From: an uncultured Methanosarcinales archaeon
Lineage (GTDB): Archaea > Nanobdellota > Nanobdellia > Woesearchaeales > DSVV01
Reading direction: 5' to 3'
Length of the DNA stretch: 64,000 nucleotides
Assembly: GCA_964453185.1 (NCBI GenBank)
Contig: CAYVNN010000004.1
Coordinates: 128,706-192,705, forward strand
Under the pieces are notes generated by a model, which did not search any database, was not told the DNA's origin, and saw only the letters and a list, made by a program, of their open reading frames with translations. Below are positions 5,488-63,214 of the stretch, in pieces. The first letter of the stretch is position 1. Each line of letters opens with the position of its first letter. The position numbers and the translations under genes are program-made.

Positions 5488-6867
5488 ATGGTATTTCTTG
5501 ATAAAAGCATGTTTAGAGAATATGATATTAGGGGTATTGCAGATACCCAATTGAGTGATGAAGTTGTTGAATTAATTGGTAAGGCATATGGAACTTTTAT
5601 TGGTGGCAAAGAAGTAATTATTGCAATGGATAATAGAAAAAGTTCTGAGAGAATTAAGAATGCTTTGATTAAAGGTTTAATTTCTTGTGGTTGTGAAATT
5701 ATTGATATTGGTTTATCTATAGTTCCAATTCTTTATTTTGCAAGAAAACATTATGGGATTGATGGTGGTATAATGATTACTGCTTCCCATAATCCTAAAG
5801 AATATAATGGTTTCAAAATCTGTAAGGGTTTTGCAACTATTTTTGGGGATGATATTCAGAAATTAAGAAGGATTGCTGAAGAAGGTAAATTTTTAGAGAG
5901 ATCTTGTGGACAAGTTAGATATGAAGATCCAAAAGAAGCATATTATGATTTATTAAAAGAAAAAATTAAATTAAATAAAAAGTTTAAAGTTGTAGTTGAT
6001 TGTGGAAATGGAACCGCGAGTTTATTTGCAGCTGATGTTTTAAGAAATTGGGGCTGTGAAGTTGTTGAACTTTATTGTGATTCTGATCCTGATTTTCCAA
6101 ATCATCAACCGGATCCTGTGAAACTTAGTTGTGTTCAAGATTTAATTAAACTAGTGAAAGAACATAATGCTGATCTTGGTGTGGGTTTTGATGGAGATGG
6201 TGATAGATTAGGTGTTGTTGATAATGAAGGAAATATGATTTGGGGAGATATGATGCTTGTTTTATTTTTTAGAGAATTGTTAGCTAAATATCCTGGTGAA
6301 GAATGTATTATTGAGGTTAAATGTTCACAGTCATTGGTTGATGATGTTAGAGCTCATGGTGGTAATCCTGTATTTTTTAAGACTGGACATTCATTAATTA
6401 AAGATAAGATGATTAAAGATGATGCAAAATTAGCAGGTGAAATGTCTGGGCATATGTTTTTTAGAGATGAATTCATTGGAACAGATGATGCATTCTATGC
6501 AGCAGGAAGATTGTTGAGAATTATGGATAAATCTAATAAAAAATTATCTGAATTATTTTTAGATGTTCCAAAATATTATTCAACACCAGAAATGAGATTG
6601 TATTGTCCAGATGAGTATAAATTTGATATTACAAAACAAATTGTTGAATATTTTAAAGATAATGATGTTGAAGGAAAGAAAGATGTTATTGATGTTGATG
6701 GAGTCAGAATTGTTTTTAATGATGGTTGGGCTTTAGTAAGAACATCAAATACACAACCTGCATTAATTTTTAGATGTGAAGGTGTTTCAGAAGAAGCAAA
6801 AGAAAGGATAAAGAAATTAATGTTTGCAAAGTTAAAAGATTATCCTGAGATTAGTTTGGAAGAGTAA
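5488..6867 (+). CDS. Phosphomannomutase/phosphoglucomutase (alpha-D-phosphohexomutase)
   Basis: TASHNPKEYNGFK active-site Ser loop and GFDGDGDR metal-binding loop. Immediately downstream of the nucleotidyltransferase, so probably one operon. Confidence 0.85.
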   Translation: MVFLDKSMFREYDIRGIADTQLSDEVVELIGKAYGTFIGGKEVIIAMDNRKSSERIKNALIKGLISCGCEIIDIGLSIVPILYFARKHYGIDGGIMITASHNPKEYNGFKICKGFATIFGDDIQKLRRIAEEGKFLERSCGQVRYEDPKEAYYDLLKEKIKLNKKFKVVVDCGNGTASLFAADVLRNWGCEVVELYCDSDPDFPNHQPDPVKLSCVQDLIKLVKEHNADLGVGFDGDGDRLGVVDNEGNMIWGDMMLVLFFRELLAKYPGEECIIEVKCSQSLVDDVRAHGGNPVFFKTGHSLIKDKMIKDDAKLAGEMSGHMFFRDEFIGTDDAFYAAGRLLRIMDKSNKKLSELFLDVPKYYSTPEMRLYCPDEYKFDITKQIVEYFKDNDVEGKKDVIDVDGVRIVFNDGWALVRTSNTQPALIFRCEGVSEEAKERIKKLMFAKLKDYPEISLEE

Positions 6868-6895: not shown

Positions 6896-7056
6896 TATAA
6901 TAATACCACAGCGGCTCTGGTACAAGGCAAAAAACAATGCTTGTATCGTATATATAATGCCGACTTCATCGACATTATAAGACATTGACTGTGTCAAGTA
7001 TCCTGACATAATATGATATAAAATTTTATAGTGAGCCAAGGCAGTGGTATTATTGC
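6896..7056 (+). repeat. Structured intergenic repeat family copy E1 (composite: also contains the promoter dual-hairpin module)
   Basis: AAUAAUACCAC-CAGCGGCUCUG ... AUAGUGAGCCAAGGCAG-GUGGUAUUAUU. The terminal stems are perfectly complementary. The interior carries tatatataatgccgacttcatcgacattataagac. Confidence 0.6.
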
Positions 7057-7085
7057 TATTGAAAACGCTGTTTGAGGTGAATATT

Positions 7086-17193: not shown

Positions 17194-17368
17194 CTTTTTT
17201 ATGGAATATCATCCTTATAGATAATTCTGTGGTTTTGAATATTTAAACTTTTGCTATTTCAGTGTTTAATTATACTTGTTATGCACAAAAATGCAGAAAA
17301 CTTTGGATAATAACCTAGTTGAATGCATTTAATATGTTAATTCAACAAGTTTTTGCATTTTTGGCATC

Positions 17369-17413
17369 CTAGAAATCCTATCAATATATAATATGGGGTA
17401 ATAGGATTTCTAT
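17369..17413 (+). promoter_or_regulatory. Perfect 12-bp inverted repeat (CTAGAAATCCTAT ... ATAGGATTTCTA) upstream of the Sm gene promoter
   Basis: Palindrome arms separated by 19 bp. ATATGGGGT occurs as a direct repeat at 17390 and 17431. The TATA cttatatatttta and SD ggagg follow. Confidence 0.35.
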
Positions 17414-17493
17414 GATATCGATACCTTTATATATGGGGTGGCCATCTCAACAGATGTCTTATATATTTTATTTAATTTTTTGGAGGAAACAAA

Positions 17494-17721
17494 ATGGAAA
17501 CATCAAGACCATTAGATGCCTTAAACAAGGCTAGAAATAAAAGAGTAATTGTTGAACTTAAGAACGGTAAACAAATTGCAGGAGAATTAAAAGCATTTGA
17601 TATTCATATTAATGTGGTATTAGATAATGCCGAAGAAAGAGCAGACGGTGAAGTTAAAAGAAAGATGGGAACTATCTTTTTAAGGGGAGATACAATTATT
17701 ATAATTTCACCAGCAGAATAA
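17494..17721 (+). CDS. Sm-like archaeal protein (SmAP/LSm)
   Basis: 75 aa. PLDALNKARNKRVIVELKNGKQIAGELKAFDIHINVVLDNAEE matches the Sm1/Sm2 motif layout. Confidence 0.85.
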   Translation: METSRPLDALNKARNKRVIVELKNGKQIAGELKAFDIHINVVLDNAEERADGEVKRKMGTIFLRGDTIIIISPAE

Positions 17722-19405: not shown

Positions 19406-20085
19406 TTGATATATTTATGTGGTGTTTTTCTGGTGGTTAATGTAGGTAAAGTAGAGGATATTGAGTTAAATTGTAAGACTGCTTATTTAGCAGGAGTTAT
19501 TATTGGCGATGGTCATATATCTAATTCAACTAAGTCAAAGTTAGATTTATTAAGGATTATAAAATTGTTATTGATATTGCAGATAAAAATTTTCTTTATT
19601 GTCTTTATAATATGATTAAAACTATGATTTTAACTAAAAGTATTCCAAGACCAACAAAAATTAGAGGAAATCGAAAAGAACGGTGGTGTTTTCAGTTTAG
19701 AAACAAATCATTTTACTTTTTCCTTACTGGATACTTAGGGATAATAGCTGGCTCAAAAAGTTCATTTGTTAGAATGCCTTTGAAAATTAAAAATGCAAAT
19801 ATTAGGTTAAAAAAATATTTCTTAGCAGGATTATTTGATACTGATGGTGGTTTTAGAGGTAATTCTCTTGGATTTACAACTGCAAGTAAAGACTTAAATA
19901 AGGATGTTCATGATTTATTGGATGAATTATTAATCAGACATAGTCTTGATAAATGGGAAAATAAAAAATATGGAAAATTTTATTATGGGATTAGAATTGC
20001 TAAGTCTGAAATAGATAATTTTTTAAATAAGGTGCCTATACAAAACAAAGAAAAGTTGAAAAGAATCCGTTCCAGATTCCCTTGA
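19406..20085 (+). pseudogene. LAGLIDADG homing endonuclease (two LAGLIDADG motifs) interrupted by a frameshift
   Basis: Motif 1 YLAGVIIGDGHI is in frame 2 (19406-19615). Motif 2 FLAGLFDTDGGF is in frame 1 (19612-20085). The frame change lies near the A5 run at about 19584. The stop TGA (20083-85) overlaps position 1-2 of the downstream tRNA. Confidence 0.55.
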
Positions 20086-23284: not shown

Positions 23285-23425
23285 ATATTGAGCCAATGCT
23301 GTGATTTCTATAAGCAATAGTAGCACAGCGGCTCTGCCACTAAGGATAATTATAAGTACGAACCGTGTTCTGACGTCATTCTATAGTATAGTTTGATAGT
23401 GAGCCAAGGCGGTGCTACTATTGTT
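23285..23425 (+). repeat. Structured intergenic repeat family copy E2
   Basis: AAUAGUAGCAC-AGCGGCUCUG ... GAUAGUGAGCCAAGGCG-GUGCUACUAUU with perfectly complementary ends. A degenerate extra 3' core, tgagccaatgctgtg, sits at 23290. Confidence 0.6.
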
Positions 23426-29552: not shown

Positions 29553-29584
29553 TTTCTCTTTTTTTTAATGATGGTTCTTTTGTA

Positions 29585-29695
29585 ATAGTACCGCCGCCTT
29601 GGCTCACTATATTATTTATCTTATTATGACGTAAGGATACGGTACGTACATTGTAATATTTCATAGTACCAGAGCCGCTGCGGTACTATTATTGT
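29585..29695 (-). repeat. Structured intergenic repeat family copy E4 (inverted orientation)
   Basis: Minus-strand reading: AAUAGUACCGC-AGCGGCUCUGGUAC ... AUAGUGAGCCAAGGCGGCG-GUACUAUU. Confidence 0.6.
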
Positions 29696-31386: not shown

Positions 31387-31457
31387 TGCACCGGGCGGGA
31401 ATCGAACCCGCGCCTAAGCGTTGGCAACGCCCAATTGTACCATTCAACCACCGGTGC
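31387..31457 (-). tRNA. tRNA-Gly (GCC), intronless
   Basis: Minus strand GCACCGG-UG-GUUG-AAUGGUA-CAAU-U-GGGCG-UUGCCAA-CGCUU-AGGC-GCGGG-UUCGAUU-CCCGC-CCGGUGC-A. All stems pair; 71 nt. Confidence 0.85.
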
Positions 31458-32447: not shown

Positions 32448-32526
32448 TATATAAATAATGCCGACTCACAAGTTCATCGACATTATTAGACATTAAAAAA
32501 CAAATTTAATCGACTAAAGTCGATGA
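32448..32526 (+). promoter_or_regulatory. Promoter-proximal dual-hairpin module, copy M2 (upstream of tRNA-Ile)
   Basis: tatataaataatgccgactcacaagttcatcgacattattagac … aatcgactaaagtcgatg. Both hairpins are present. Confidence 0.45.
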
Positions 32527-32542
32527 AATTGCTTTATTTAAT

Positions 32543-32678
32543 GGGCCTGTAGCTTAGTCTGGTTGGAGCGCTGGTCTTATATGGCTTCGTTTCATACAAG
32601 AAATTGGCTCTGAGTGAGCCAGTGGTCGTGAGAGGTCATCTTTTAGATGATTCACGAATTCAAATCTCATCAGGCCCA
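32543..32678 (+). tRNA. tRNA-Ile (UAU) with two introns (37/38, 35 nt; 53/54, 26 nt)
   Basis: GGGCCUG-UA-GCUU-AGUCUGGUUG-GAGC-G-CUGGU-CUUAUA[35 nt]A-GCCAG-UGGUC-GUGAG[26 nt]UUCAAAU-CUCAU-CAGGCCC-A. All helices pair. An oligo-T follows. Confidence 0.65.
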
Positions 32679-35440: not shown

Positions 35441-35548
35441 TATTAGTACCACAGCGGCTCTGATTCTAAGTGAAATAATAGTGACGCAACATATTTTATT
35501 GCGAATTAATGAGTTATTAGAAAAGGAGTCAAGGTGGTGGTACTAATA
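35441..35548 (+). repeat. Structured intergenic repeat family copy E5
   Basis: AUUAGUACCAC-AGCGGCUCUGAUUC ... GGAGUCAAGGUGG-UGGUACUAAU with a slightly degenerate 3' core. Confidence 0.55.
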
Positions 35549-35604
35549 ACTTTTTCCATATTTTTTTCAAAAGCTTTAATAAGTTCTAATTATTTAATTG
35601 TCTT

Positions 35605-43313: not shown

Positions 43314-43454
43314 GGGCCGTTAGCTCAGCCTGGTACTTTGTAAGTATTCAAAGCTTTATCGGCAGGAAAGAGCACTGCACTTTTAACAAAGACTGGAACT
43401 TTCAACCAGTTGAAAGTGATGCAGGTGTCGCGAGTTCGAATCTCGTACGGCCCA
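43314..43454 (+). tRNA. tRNA-Lys (UUU) with two introns (D-loop ~34 nt; anticodon 37/38 33 nt)
   Basis: GGGCCGU-UA-GCUC-AGCCUGGUA[intron]-GAGC-A-CUGCA-CUUUUA[ACAAAGACUGGAACUUUCAACCAGUUGAAAGUG]A-UGCAG-GUGUC-GCGAG-UUCGAAU-CUCGU-ACGGCCC-A. Confidence 0.65.
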
Positions 43455-52627: not shown

Positions 52628-52680
52628 TTATCTTAATTATTTTCTTATTATTCTCTCGACATTTTTCTTTTTAGTAAACT

Positions 52681-52745
52681 ATATATAATGCCTACTCCAA
52701 AGTCGTCTGGCATTATAAGACTTTACTGCCGTAAAGTATATATAC
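52681..52745 (+). promoter_or_regulatory. Promoter-proximal dual-hairpin module, copy M3
   Basis: atatataatgcc-tactccaaagtcgtct-ggcattata-agac-tttac-tgcc-gtaaag-tatatata. Hairpin 1 is a 9-bp perfect stem; hairpin 2 is ACTTTAC/GTAAAGT. A TATA-like box is at each end. Confidence 0.5.
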
Positions 52746-52767: not shown

Positions 52768-53382
52768 ATGTGGGAGAATACTGTTGATTCGGATGACTTG
52801 CTTTGTCATGAAAGAAAGTTTAAGGAGTTTAATGTTAGGATTGAAGCAAGGAAAAATGTTGATTCTGAGAGTAAAAAATGGGAGATTTTTAGAACATATT
52901 ATAATGATACTAGCTTAAATTATACTGAAGAATTCTTTACTACAACCAGAGATAAAGCAGAAGCATTAATTGAAACACTTATGAGAGATAAGTTATTAAC
53001 GAATCATGAGTTAACAAAGATAAAACTTGAACAAAGGAAAGGCATCAAATTAAATATAAATAGGGTTTTTAAGGATTATAATGTTGAGAAGTGGATTGTA
53101 TGTGTTAATCATGAAAAAGAGAAGAATGTTGTTTATATTAGGGATGCAGAGATGTTAGAGATTGACTTTATTATGAATGAGAAATATAAGCATATTATGA
53201 AAAAGGTATCTAAAGAATTTATTAAAATATTAGGATATAATAATAGTATTTTTGATAAGGCAACTAATGTGTATTATTTTAAAGAAAAAACAGAAAGATA
53301 TTCAAAAGCATCTTCAAAAAACATTCTAGTTAGTAAGGTTGAGGTTGGACTAGACTATAACTCAGATGAGAATATTGATTGA
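52768..53382 (+). CDS. Hypothetical protein (204 aa) inserted between rps7 and the GTPase gene
   Basis: Clean ORF starting about 22 nt after the module M3 TATA. No recognisable motif. Lys/Glu/Asn-rich. Confidence 0.45.
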   Translation: MWENTVDSDDLLCHERKFKEFNVRIEARKNVDSESKKWEIFRTYYNDTSLNYTEEFFTTTRDKAEALIETLMRDKLLTNHELTKIKLEQRKGIKLNINRVFKDYNVEKWIVCVNHEKEKNVVYIRDAEMLEIDFIMNEKYKHIMKKVSKEFIKILGYNNSIFDKATNVYYFKEKTERYSKASSKNILVSKVEVGLDYNSDENID

Positions 53383-55981: not shown

Positions 55982-56149
55982 ATTTTTCTTAATGAAGAAT
56001 TCTTTTTAAAGTTGATCTAAGAATATCCGGATGTTTTTTACTTATCTTTGTTACTATTCCCGAGTTTTTCCGGATGTTTTCTATAAACATATTTATTGCT
56101 AAAAAATAGTTAAAATACCGATAATTTTAAATATAGAGACCTCTAAAAT

Positions 56150-56206
56150 ATATATAATCCCGACTTTGTCGAGATTATAGGACTTTACTTTGTAAAGTAT
56201 ATATAA
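56150..56206 (+). promoter_or_regulatory. Promoter-proximal dual-hairpin module, copy M4
   Basis: tatatataatc-ccgac-ttt-gtcg-a-gattata-ggac-tttac-tttg-taaag-tatatata. The outer stem shows a compensatory change (TATAATC/GATTATA versus TATAATG/CATTATA in other copies). Confidence 0.5.
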
Positions 56207-56225
56207 TACTTTTTAGTAAGGTATT

Positions 56226-60814: not shown

Positions 60815-61836
60815 CTTACTCTTTTTATTTGTTCTTTAATGTGATGTAGTGAATAATCTCCACCAAGTAATGGGATTGAGTGAACTTTTCTTTTTAATAA
60901 TCTTTCAATTTCTTTTTTGTATTGTCCATCATTCATTTCAATAACAATTATTCTTTTGTAATTGTGTGCAATGTCTTGGATCTTTTTTATTATTGGAAAT
61001 AATCTAATTGGTCTAAATATAGAATATTGTTCTTTAAGTGAAGAAATAATTCTCCCTATTGATCCATAACCAATTAATAATGTTGAAGATTTTTTATGTT
61101 TTTTATATTGGTATTTTTTAAATTTCTTTGCAGTTGTTAAGATCTGTTTTTTTCTTTTTTCAAACATTTCTCTGTAATATTTTCTTGCTCTAGTGCAGGG
61201 GATATTGTTTTTTGATAGTAATCCTGTAAAATGTCTTCTTCCTTTACCAAATTCAATTGTTTTTTTTTCAATTAGTCTTATTTTTATCTTGTCTATATCT
61301 ATTGTTTCATATAAATGTGAGATTAATGCATCTGAAAGAAGAATAACTGGACTTTGTGAGATTTCAGAAGCATTGAATGCATCAATTGTGCAAGTATAAC
61401 ATTCTTCAACAGAAGAAGGAGCAAAGACAATAACTTGTTGATCACCATGTCTTCCATATGCTGCTTGTAATACATCTCCTTGTGAAGGTAATGTTGGCAT
61501 TCCTGTACTTGGACCAACTCTTTGTGAATTAATGATTACAATAGGAATCTTTGTCATGTATGAATATCCAATTGATTCTTGCATTAGACTAAAACCTGGA
61601 CCAGATGTTGCAGTCATAGACTTTTTCCCAGCTAAACTTGCTCCTATTATTTGATTTATTGCAGCTAGCTCATCTTCAGGTTGGATAAAATCAATCTTAT
61701 GTTTCTTTTTATTGTTTGCAATATAATGTAGAATCTCAGATGCAGGAGTTATTGGATATGATGAATAAAAGCCAAGGCCTGCTTTAATCGCACCTAAAGC
61801 AATAGCTTCATTTCCTTGTAAAAGTCTAACTACCAC
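60811..61836 (-). CDS. 2-oxoacid:ferredoxin oxidoreductase alpha subunit
   Basis: …QGNEAIALGAIKAGLGFYSSYPITPASEI…. GTG start with SD GGGGTGA 6 nt upstream. Overlaps the beta subunit. Confidence 0.8.
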   Translation of the reverse strand: MVVRLLQGNEAIALGAIKAGLGFYSSYPITPASEILHYIANNKKKHKIDFIQPEDELAAINQIIGASLAGKKSMTATSGPGFSLMQESIGYSYMTKIPIVIINSQRVGPSTGMPTLPSQGDVLQAAYGRHGDQQVIVFAPSSVEECYTCTIDAFNASEISQSPVILLSDALISHLYETIDIDKIKIRLIEKKTIEFGKGRRHFTGLLSKNNIPCTRARKYYREMFEKRKKQILTTAKKFKKYQYKKHKKSSTLLIGYGSIGRIISSLKEQYSIFRPIRLFPIIKKIQDIAHNYKRIIVIEMNDGQYKKEIERLLKRKVHSIPLLGGDYSLHHIKEQIKRVR

Positions 61837-61889
61837 AAATTCACCCCTTTTCTTATTTTGTTGATTTACTATAGTATATTTTTAAAGTT

Positions 61890-61961
61890 CTTATATATAT
61901 ACTTTGCGTAGCAAATGTCTAATAATGTCGATGACTTTGGAGTCGGCATTATTTATATTTA
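61890..61961 (-). promoter_or_regulatory. Promoter-proximal dual-hairpin module, copy M5 (promoter region of the oxidoreductase/SCS operon)
   Basis: Minus strand: ataaatataaataatgccgactccaaagtcatcgacattattagac-atttgc-tac-gcaaag-tatatatataag. Hairpin 2 shows a covarying stem (TTTGC/GCAAA versus TTTAC/GTAAA). Confidence 0.5.
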
Positions 61962-62005
61962 TGGGTTGGAGGCTTTTTCATTAATTTTATATATACTTAC
62001 TCTAT

Positions 62006-63214
62006 TTGTTTAATATTATGGCTGAGATTAGTCCTGAACAGAAGGAAGCATTGGAAAAACAGAAGGAACAATGTCCTTTTTGTAAGATTATTAAGGGAGA
62101 AATACCTTCTCATAAGGTATATGAGGATGATTTGATTATTGCTGTTTTAGATATAAATCCTGCTACAAAAGGTCATATTCTTGTTATGCCAAAGGAACAT
62201 TATCCAATTATGCCATTAATTCCACCTGAAACATTTGAACATTTATTTGCAAAGACAAAACATCTTTCACAGTGTTTGAAAGAAGGTATGCTTGTTTTTG
62301 GTGATACTATCTTTATTGCAAATGGTTATGCTGCTGGGCAGCAAAGTAATCATTTTATGCTTCATATTATTCCAAGAGATGAAGGAGATGGTCTAAGTAA
62401 TTTTGAATTTAAGAAAGGTGAAATTGATTCTGCGAAATTTGATGAAGCTTTTAAGATGTTGTCTCATAATTTACCAATTATGTTGAGAAATAGGTCTGGT
62501 AAATTTGCAATGCCTGGGCAGAAAGGAGCACCGCAAGCAGTTGCATATGGTAAAGATGAAATAATAAAAATAATTGAACAAAATCCACAACTTAAAAAAA
62601 TGATTCTTGATCAGCCTGATGCATTTAAACAGCAAGTATTGATGAATGATCAATTAAAGCAATTGTTTGAGAAAGTTGATGTTAATGAAATTATTAAACA
62701 CTTTAATCCTGATGCAAAGATAAGTGAAGATAAAACAGAGCAACCACCAGCTTCTGAATCTACTGTTGGTAATGCAAAGCCTAGTGTGGATGAACTTATT
62801 GTTTTATTAAATCAAAATCCTAAATTAAAAGATATGATATTGACAGATACTATCTTGTTTAAAGAAAATGTTGCAAAAGTTCCTCAAATTAATGAACTAT
62901 TTGGTCATGTTGATATTGATGAGTTAAAAAATAGATTAATTGAGGATTTAAGTAAAGAAGATCTTTTAGATGAGGATGAAAAGAAAGAGGAGAGAACTGT
63001 TAAAGATATGAGTAAAGATGAAGAAGAAGATGTTTTAGATGAATTATTTGGTAATGATTCAAGTGATGATGATAAAAAAGAAGATGATAATGAAGAAGAG
63101 AAAGATGAAGAGAAAAAAGATGATGATAGTAAAGCGGACAAACAGCAAGAAGATAAAGATGATAAAGGACATAGAGGTAATCCATCATTAGATGGGATAG
63201 CAGATTTGTTTTGA
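62006..63214 (+). CDS. HIT-family (histidine triad) hydrolase with a long acidic low-complexity C-terminal extension
   Basis: N-terminal CPFCKIIKGEIPSHKVYEDDLIIAVLDINPATKGHILVMPKEH plus the triad region NHFMLHIIPR. The last ~100 aa are D/E/K-rich. Confidence 0.7.
   Translation: MFNIMAEISPEQKEALEKQKEQCPFCKIIKGEIPSHKVYEDDLIIAVLDINPATKGHILVMPKEHYPIMPLIPPETFEHLFAKTKHLSQCLKEGMLVFGDTIFIANGYAAGQQSNHFMLHIIPRDEGDGLSNFEFKKGEIDSAKFDEAFKMLSHNLPIMLRNRSGKFAMPGQKGAPQAVAYGKDEIIKIIEQNPQLKKMILDQPDAFKQQVLMNDQLKQLFEKVDVNEIIKHFNPDAKISEDKTEQPPASESTVGNAKPSVDELIVLLNQNPKLKDMILTDTILFKENVAKVPQINELFGHVDIDELKNRLIEDLSKEDLLDEDEKKEERTVKDMSKDEEEDVLDELFGNDSSDDDKKEDDNEEEKDEEKKDDDSKADKQQEDKDDKGHRGNPSLDGIADLF

Follow-up and report, generated by a model that had tools for sequence, protein, structure and literature searches.

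The biology of REP and MITE repeats as 'portable promoters' has so far been worked out in Bacteria. REP stems of 5-13 bp are reported, and tagged REPs are reported in 8 phyla, of which those named in the accessible portion of the source are bacterial (PMC3733652). Correia elements and other MITEs carry outward-facing promoters able to drive a neighbouring gene, and the pneumococcal BOX, RUP and SPRITE repeats, like other MITE and repeat families, insert into one another (PMC10969869). Homologous promoters standing before unrelated genes have been termed 'putative mobile promoters' (PMC3488235).

We found a two-hairpin module of about 60 nt that occurs in five copies, far above chance by a profile built from them, in a 64-kb stretch of archaeal DNA (hereafter the window). 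Our best explanation, which we put forward tentatively, is that the module is a REP/MITE-like dispersed palindromic repeat able to carry a promoter, and not a regulatory leader of the adjoining genes. Like REPs and REPINs (PMC3733652), it is a short imperfect palindrome, with a 12-bp stem inside the 5-13 bp range, a conserved unpaired tag at the stem foot (AGUCY in the better-folding strand of the module) with a short tail, A/T pairs at the stem foot, variable loops, an intergenic and clustered distribution, several subtypes per genome and a strand-specific mismatch. However, the module tag, (A)GUCY (AGAC on the gene strand), is neither the GTAG nor the CGTC of REPs (PMC3733652). The module also differs in that it is always accompanied by a second hairpin, has AT-rich stems and an archaeal host, forms no head-to-head or tail-to-tail dimers, and lies on the promoter side of spacers, whereas REPs lie at gene 3' ends. 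Correia elements and other MITEs resemble it as small non-coding repeats that lie mostly just upstream of genes and fold into hairpins (PMC10969869). Correia elements are 100-200 bp long, are bounded by clear terminal inverted repeats of 26 bp and come with a TA duplication, whereas no duplication is visible at the module, clear terminal inverted repeats are seen only in its composite copies at loci L009, L010 and L013, and its putative promoter is of the archaeal BRE/TATA type. The module fits the definition of putative mobile promoters, namely near-identical promoter sequence before non-homologous genes, although this category is descriptive and silent on hairpins and mechanism (PMC3488235). 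The operators of archaeal repressors are similar in placing a palindrome directly downstream of a TATA-like box, but the module has variable spacing and nested insertions, both of its arms change together, and it has no common regulon and is absent at orthologous promoters. To our knowledge, the defining motifs of K-turns, C/D and H/ACA RNAs, BHB motifs, CRISPR repeats and dif sites are absent from the module, and these readings were dropped.

The module in a DPANN genome

The host of the window is a Woesearchaeota (DPANN) archaeon. The archaeal traits of the window are its 30% G+C, its intron-containing tRNAs and a split rpoB in its rpoH-rpoB-rpoA-L30e-NusA-S12-S7 cluster. Its DRG-type GTPase is identical to a protein on contigs of up to 193 kb, and the next relatives (70% identity or less) are labelled Woesearchaeota or Nanoarchaeota. 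DPANN archaea are uncultured and have tiny genomes, and we know of almost nothing about the origin and regulation of their promoters. If our reading is true, a mobile structured repeat that replaces gene promoters would offer a simple route to rewire expression in DPANN genomes, and REP/MITE 'portable promoter' biology would extend to Archaea with their BRE/TATA promoters.

The module is 55-65 nt long, and the alignment of the five window copies spans about 60 nt. On the strand of the downstream gene (the gene strand) it reads TATAWATAAT, hairpin 1, a WRGAC linker, hairpin 2 and then AT, often as ATATATA. The last bases of TATAWATAAT form the 5' arm of hairpin 1, a palindrome of 27-34 nt that is always intergenic. 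On this strand the lower stem of hairpin 1 is WATAATS and its upper stem CGA(C)/(G)TCG, with a C·A mismatch between them and 3-10 nt in the loop, and hairpin 2 has the form AC(A)TTKRC-N3-4-GYMAAGT. The sequence-only reading had located five copies of this arrangement. All are present in the sequence: a profile search of the 64 kb recovered the same five only (E 8.5e-12 to 1.5e-18, the next match at E=2.2), and a covariance model likewise found these five and no others. The core CCGACT-N(2-12)-TCGR has 4 matches in the window against 0.01 expected, and the longer module pattern has 2 against 0.00. A further 7 kb leftward of the window held no extra copies, giving five in about 71 kb of the genome. 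All five are intergenic and oriented toward a downstream gene, and this orientation is informative in only two of them because the other three sit between divergent genes.

Copy 3, the focal one, lies at 52680-52744(+) between rps7 and a gene for a 204-aa hypothetical protein (nhmmer E=6e-16; 58.6 bits with the covariance model). Its upstream TATA-like box (T1), TATATATA, occupies 52680-52687, the 3' part of the box being the 5' arm of hairpin 1. Folding and covariation place hairpin 1 at 52684-52717, where the arms TATAATGCC and GGCATTATA enclose a 16-nt loop that reads GA-C-UUU-G-GA on the opposite strand. The linker AGAC at 52718-52721, defined from alignments, shares its AC with the closing pairs of hairpin 2; on the opposite strand it is GUCU, the conserved 5' tag ahead of the 12-bp hairpin. 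Hairpin 2, ACTTTAC-TGCC-GTAAAGT, follows at 52720-52737, and its 3' arm GTAAAG fits the BRE consensus. The 3' TATA box (T3), again TATATATA, lies at 52737-52744, which is 23 nt ahead of the ATG at 52768. The predicted promoter CGTAAAGTATATATAC at 52730-52745 scores 10.9 bits, placing the T3 of this copy in the top 0.03% of window positions.

The other copies depart from this arrangement to various degrees. Copy 1 (6949-7001, +) lies between a phosphoglucomutase (PGM) gene and a gene for a secreted protein of 387/408 aa, and consists of hairpin 1 (6953-6979), AGAC (6980-6983) and hairpin 2 (6982-6999) without a 3' TATATATA, which corrects the first description of TATA-like boxes on both sides. 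Copy 2 (32450-32542, +), which we call type B, has T1, hairpin 1 (32454-32487) and AGAC (32488-32491), after which a long imperfect hairpin carries a likely tRNA promoter; an intron-containing tRNA (32543-32678) begins where the copy ends. Of the layout proposed for all five copies, copy 2 has only hairpin 1 and the linker, its second hairpin being different and longer. The 3' half of copy 2 recurs at locus L007, directly upstream of another module. Copy 4 (56149-56207, +) lies between TctA, encoded on the minus strand, and a small protein of 136/147 aa, and has hairpin 1 at 56153-56179 (TATAATC/GATTATA), hairpin 2 at 56182-56198 and T3 TATATATAAT at 56198-56207. Copy 5 (61891-61957, -) lies upstream of a 2-oxoacid:ferredoxin oxidoreductase/succinyl-CoA synthetase operon, with hairpin 1 in its long-loop form at 61953-61921, AGAC at 61920-61917, hairpin 2 at 61918-61901 and T3 at 61900-61891.

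The stem variants quoted at first sight are correct for both hairpin 1 (TATAATG/CATTATA, TATAATC/GATTATA and AATAATG/CATTATT) and hairpin 2 (TTTAC/GTAAA, TTTGC/GCAAA and TTGAC/GTCAA), while a 'CC...GG' extension of stem 1 exists only in copy 3 and gives way elsewhere to the conserved C·A mismatch on the gene strand. The covariation read into both stems was borne out over 15 copies from several genomes, all related by descent, with a score of 0.230 against 0.070 in shuffles (0 of 500 reach 0.230) and at most 0.061 for slid partners. Over these copies the closing (foot) pair of hairpin 1 is U-A in 7, A-U in 5 and G-C in 3, and the seventh pair is G-C in 8, C-G in 6 and U-A in 1, with no mismatches at either position. 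Such matches were not built in by the search, because its pattern left the two S positions free of each other and the foot base free. Across both hairpins, 92% of cells pair, compared with 82% after shuffling and 28-42% with slid partners.

Copies in other genomes and at orthologous sites

Beyond this genome, about 18 copies lie beside unrelated genes in other Woesearchaeota, where they represent at least five genomes or metagenome lineages of 32-49% G+C. When one genome per species was scanned with an exact pattern, the module turned up in three MAGs, CAYVNO01 (5 loci, 33% G+C), JAWOBY01 (48%) and JAFGRM01 (45%), and a metagenome scan gave five more module loci. With the covariance model this makes about 23 copies in 236 kb from at least six genomes, a small sample most of which was found with a pattern that fixes much of the sequence. 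A virus-borne element was rejected on 0 matches in the viral contigs scanned. The module is the only DNA similarity between the relatives' loci and the window. Copy 4 and the copy at L001, for example, show 93.5% identity over 62 nt, and their flanks share nothing. The ATAATC and ATAATG stem subtypes are common to the window genome and CAYVNO01 at >90% identity, while the proteins of these genomes are about 70% identical. Between L001, the first copy at L007 (L007a) and copy 4, the stems, linker and T1 are identical and the loops differ. Identical stems across copies fit selection for a host function and the constraint of a master element equally well.

That the module precedes unrelated genes, close to their promoters, had been proposed from the window, and the wider set bears it out: the downstream genes include those for PGI, a HAD hydrolase, a kinase, a PIG-L deacetylase, an epimerase, oxidoreductase/SCS, a tRNA and hypothetical proteins, with no shared theme. 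A common regulon was therefore rejected. A tRNA-linked element was also rejected, as no tRNA adjoins the copies in relatives. Among about 18 sites, 8 are divergent spacers, in 7 the module points downstream between co-directional genes, in 2-3 it points toward a gene 3' end, and none lies between convergent genes. Some copies, at L001, L003 and L002b, have no co-oriented downstream gene.

The copies also show repeat-like arrangements. Tandem copies occur at L003 and L007, at L002/L005 the hairpin-1 loop of one copy houses a second copy, and other hairpins sit inside the hairpin-2 loops at L008, L010 and L013. Entire hairpin units have been gained or lost between the paralogous arrays L002 and L005. 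All doublets are head-to-tail tandems or nested copies, with no inverted (head-to-head or tail-to-tail) doublets. L010 (3640-3870, -) and L013 (2990-3250, -) share a 255-nt non-coding composite between different flanking genes, in which terminal inverted repeats of about 20 nt enclose the module. Their alignment has a mean column identity of 86% over 335 columns, visibly higher within the composite. A long hairpin encloses the module and is followed by a second conserved hairpin, CTGCGG...CCGCAG, with no Rfam match. An RNase P or SRP RNA, considered for the composite on account of an AGGAAA..UCC-like string, was dropped for want of Rfam support. Pairing between the flanks is clearly above mismatched controls only in L009, L010 and L013, and a general outer closing stem (three-way junction) was rejected since it is supported in these three and not in the AT-rich copies. 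The ends of the AT-rich copies are TATATATA-like and self-complementary, so terminal inverted repeats are uninformative there.

Contig 8 of CAYVNO01 has the gene order of window 43-64 kb (rpoH...S7-hyp-DRG...TctA-SCS-KOR|HIT), with proteins about 70% identical. On this contig no module stands after rps7, near TctA or before the oxidoreductase operon, and ordinary promoters are found there. At a fourth orthologous site without the module, the spacer between PGM and the next gene measures 33 nt in the relative and 176 nt in the window. Presence and absence at orthologous sites is thus seen at four spacers, and only between species with about 70% protein identity. Likewise, 89 kb from five relatives, anchored on the DRG-type GTPase, contained no module copies, while the relatives' genomes carry copies at other loci (L001-L009). 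At locus L014, the orthologue of the gene downstream of copy 3 has an ordinary promoter and no module, as does the spacer orthologous to the copy-5 site (17282-17647, compared with window 61836-62006). Upstream of the oxidoreductase alpha subunit, L014 also has a small Cys-rich, ferredoxin-like ORF that is absent in the window genome. The insertion of copy 5 coincides with the loss of this ORF, because the window spacer holds only the module copy.

Within the strain, seven contigs are at least 99.99% identical to the window; module copies 3-5 are identical in all of them, and no empty sites appear among them. Where flanks were compared, copies from GC-richer genomes have no direct repeats beside them, and a target-site duplication would be hard to see in the AT-rich copies because their ends are AT-rich. 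A Pfam scan of the window and 11 loci, covering 81 ORFs of 105-200 aa, gave no Y1/RAYT-like transposase among the matches listed (25 of 56 families). With no transposase, target duplication or strain-level polymorphism found, any mechanism of mobilisation is proposed here only conditionally.

Promoters, strands and competing explanations

Upstream regions of genes without a module give the genome BRE/TATA consensus CAAAAGnTTTATATA, and the TATA octamer of leaderless genes in the window precedes the ATG by 23-25 nt. GYAAAG-TATATATA, the 3' end of the module, agrees with this consensus. The spacing of T3 to the ATG or to a Shine-Dalgarno-led start fits in copies 3, 4 and 5; in copies 4 and 5, T3 precedes Shine-Dalgarno-led starts by about 30 nt, or an alternative ATG by 20 nt. 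With T3 downstream at a fitting distance, both hairpins of these three copies are predicted from promoter geometry to lie upstream of the start site rather than in the leader. The T3 of copy 5 scores 7.2 bits with a crude position weight matrix (21 training sites) that scores copy 3 well and misses near-identical T3 boxes; the promoter calls therefore rest mainly on consensus and spacing. A 3' TATA box lies inside only about half of the AT-rich copies. Separate promoters lie 10-45 nt downstream of the module at copy 1, L007a and L004, and about 220 nt downstream at L009, the gene promoters of L007, L004 and L009 being separate at 25-220 nt. The distance from module to nearest promoter ranges from 0 to about 220 nt in relatives. 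T1, which has no built-in BRE, consists of TA(W)A followed by the stem and is kept even in relatives with 45-49% G+C. In short-loop copies, 23 nt separate it from the Py-Pu step of WRGAC, and T1 may therefore drive a start, but the spacing fails in long-loop copies. Divergent neighbouring genes have canonical promoters of their own.

In the explanation that we tentatively prefer, a REP/MITE-like repeat, the module family, which occurs in a subset of Woesearchaeota, would spread, or be spread, to new intergenic sites with a preference for promoter-bearing spacers. The two hairpins would be features of the element's own single-stranded form, with hairpin 1 folding best on the strand opposite the gene. 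In this AT-rich genome, the hairpin-2 arm GYAAAG together with TATATATA would act as a BRE/TATA promoter, and several copies would supply or replace the promoter of the downstream gene as a 'portable promoter'. Such a replacement appears to have occurred at the hypothetical gene downstream of rps7 and at the oxoacid oxidoreductase operon. The sequences themselves establish the family, its lack of synteny, its tandem, nested and composite arrangements, the covarying stems, the strand-asymmetric pairing and the promoter-like sequence with its geometry, whereas we infer the mobility, the single-stranded intermediate and the promoter activity of the module.

A host cis-acting DNA element, which we regard as unlikely but deserving of attention, would also place the module near promoters. 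Its hairpins would be extruded as a cruciform or bound by a general factor immediately upstream of, or across, core promoters, tuning initiation or insulating transcription units. On this view the module would hold a compact bidirectional promoter, with T1 and hairpin 1's right arm acting as crossed TATA boxes and the two arms of hairpin 2 as back-to-back BREs. Every window copy indeed lies in a promoter-bearing spacer, and 0 of about 18 sites are convergent. GYAAAG-TC-TTATAAT on the opposite strand resembles the BRE/TATA consensus too, T1 (TATAAATAAT-like) persists at 45-49% G+C and lies 23 nt upstream of the WRGAC Py-Pu step in short-loop copies, and stems stay constant between genomes while loops drift. 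With DNA parameters, moreover, folding is good on either strand (z -3 to -7), the difference shrinking to about 1 kcal/mol. Against such an element, the half-sites of hairpin 1 are separated by 3, 4, 5, 9 or 10 nt or by an insert of about 60 nt, so that their spacing is not fixed, and loop length and nested insertions shift both spacing and helical phase. The promoter lies anywhere from 0 to 220 nt away, some copies have no downstream gene, the divergent neighbours already have canonical promoters, and the module is absent at orthologous promoters and precedes unrelated genes. A duplex operator is unlikely because spacing and position vary in this way. The sequence-only reading had offered a structured operator spanning the promoter as one of two possibilities; in a fixed form it does not agree with the variable loop and promoter distance, the lack of a gene theme and the four empty orthologous sites.

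The other possibility offered was a 5'-leader RNA structure, and the strand on which the module folds bears on it. The strand opposite to the gene strand gives hairpin 1 as an unbroken helix of 12 bp in which 99.5% of 209 cells form standard pairs, with the layout 5'-AAGUC-Y-[12 bp]-loop-[12 bp]-N-UWUA. This strand has an invariant U·G, a top pair alternating between U·G and C-G, and a foot G·U in L010; the G·U pairs at four positions are C·A mismatches on the gene strand. Copies with a long loop have a tandem G·A/A·G motif that closes a covarying pair (C-G, G-C, A-U or U·G) under a CUUG or UUU loop. Under RNA parameters, 20 of 21 copies fold more stably on the opposite strand, the mean difference being 4.9 kcal/mol. 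With its conserved G·U pairs, the 12-bp hairpin offers a concrete handle for finding the protein that recognises it.

These properties would suit a structured RNA, to which we give a rather low probability. It could be a promoter-upstream antisense transcript, in which the 12-bp hairpin with its U/A-rich tail is a small RNA or a stop signal, or a sense leader started from T1, in which hairpin 2 is a protective 5' stem-loop. The strand preference of RNA folding, the pairing of the opposite strand with G·U where the gene strand has C·A, and the RNA-like tandem G·A pairs and CUUG/UUU loops all point this way. For the sense leader in particular, the 23 nt from T1 to AGAC fit an archaeal start site, and in L007 transcription from a type-B promoter would run through an entire module. 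However, the antisense hairpins are not preceded by a promoter at any consistent distance, the internal TATA boxes would put starts at or beyond the hairpin and not before it, and the tail is not U-rich in GC-richer genomes. The sense leader would carry hairpin 1 on the gene strand with its conserved mismatches. Rfam at the gathering threshold detected only tRNAs in the window and nothing in 12 loci, its E-value mode gave nothing but sub-threshold noise in the two loci searched, and the structure is not conserved upstream of orthologous genes. A regulatory 5' leader, as first suggested, is unlikely because of the promoter geometry, with T3 downstream of the hairpins, the better folding of hairpin 1 on the opposite strand and the lack of synteny.

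We see a similarly slim chance that the module represents a kind of structured, strand-specific nucleic acid as yet undescribed in Archaea. Either a mobilisation system of DPANN archaea, HUH-type or other, would recognise the hairpin as its substrate and scatter ready-made BRE/TATA promoters, or an antisense hairpin RNA upstream of promoters would enforce their direction. Chance AT-rich palindromes near TATA boxes can practically be dismissed, for although TATA-like strings are everywhere in a genome of 30% G+C, E values reach 1e-18 with nothing between 1e-11 and 2, the core pattern has 4 matches against 0.01 expected, and the module also occurs in genomes of up to 49% G+C.

Neighbouring features of the window and loci

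We also found a second intergenic repeat of about 60 nt in the window. It consists of (C)CGTATCCTGACGTCAT, an AT-rich stretch and ATAGTGAGCCAAGGCGGYGGTACTATT, and its core has 4 matches against 0 expected. The copies lie at 6998-7058(+), 23365-23425(+), 29580-29640(-) and 35490-35550(+), one of them abutting the 3' end of module copy 1. Two precede start codons by 30-75 nt, and another is flanked by a convergent gene pair. This repeat may be another portable promoter or leader, or a small RNA.

The phosphoglucomutase/phosphomannomutase gene at 5488-6867(+) encodes a protein with a few close relatives at 62-65% identity; otherwise its named best matches (53-61%) are bacterial, from Firmicutes, Armatimonadota and candidate phyla. 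A 64%-identical homologue is found on a clearly bacterial contig (L032). These similarities suggest that the gene was horizontally acquired. At 19612-20085(+), a free-standing ORF has a LAGLIDADG homing-endonuclease domain (E=1e-11) and is flanked by unusually long non-coding stretches at 17.2-18.1 kb and 20.1-20.7 kb.

ARAGORN reported only tRNA-Gly (31387-31457, -) in the window. Two tRNA genes with long introns, at 32543-32678(+) and 43314-43454(+), were both missed by ARAGORN and detected by Rfam. A probable tRNA gene with more than one intron at L002 (2850-3030, -), which adjoins a degenerate module array, was missed by both programs. Positions 3080-4280 of L003 form a 1.2-kb non-coding region with two tandem modules, many copies of CCTCACTTTT and AAAGTGAGGG, and the tandem repeat ATTGTAATGCGTTGCAATGC; it could be an origin-like or decayed mobile region. 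Finally, two independent Logan assemblies of the window strain (L025 and L026, corresponding to window 52393/52398-56136) both end at 56136, about 10 nt before module copy 4. A break caused by repeats would have this appearance, a hint of further near-identical copies elsewhere in the genome.
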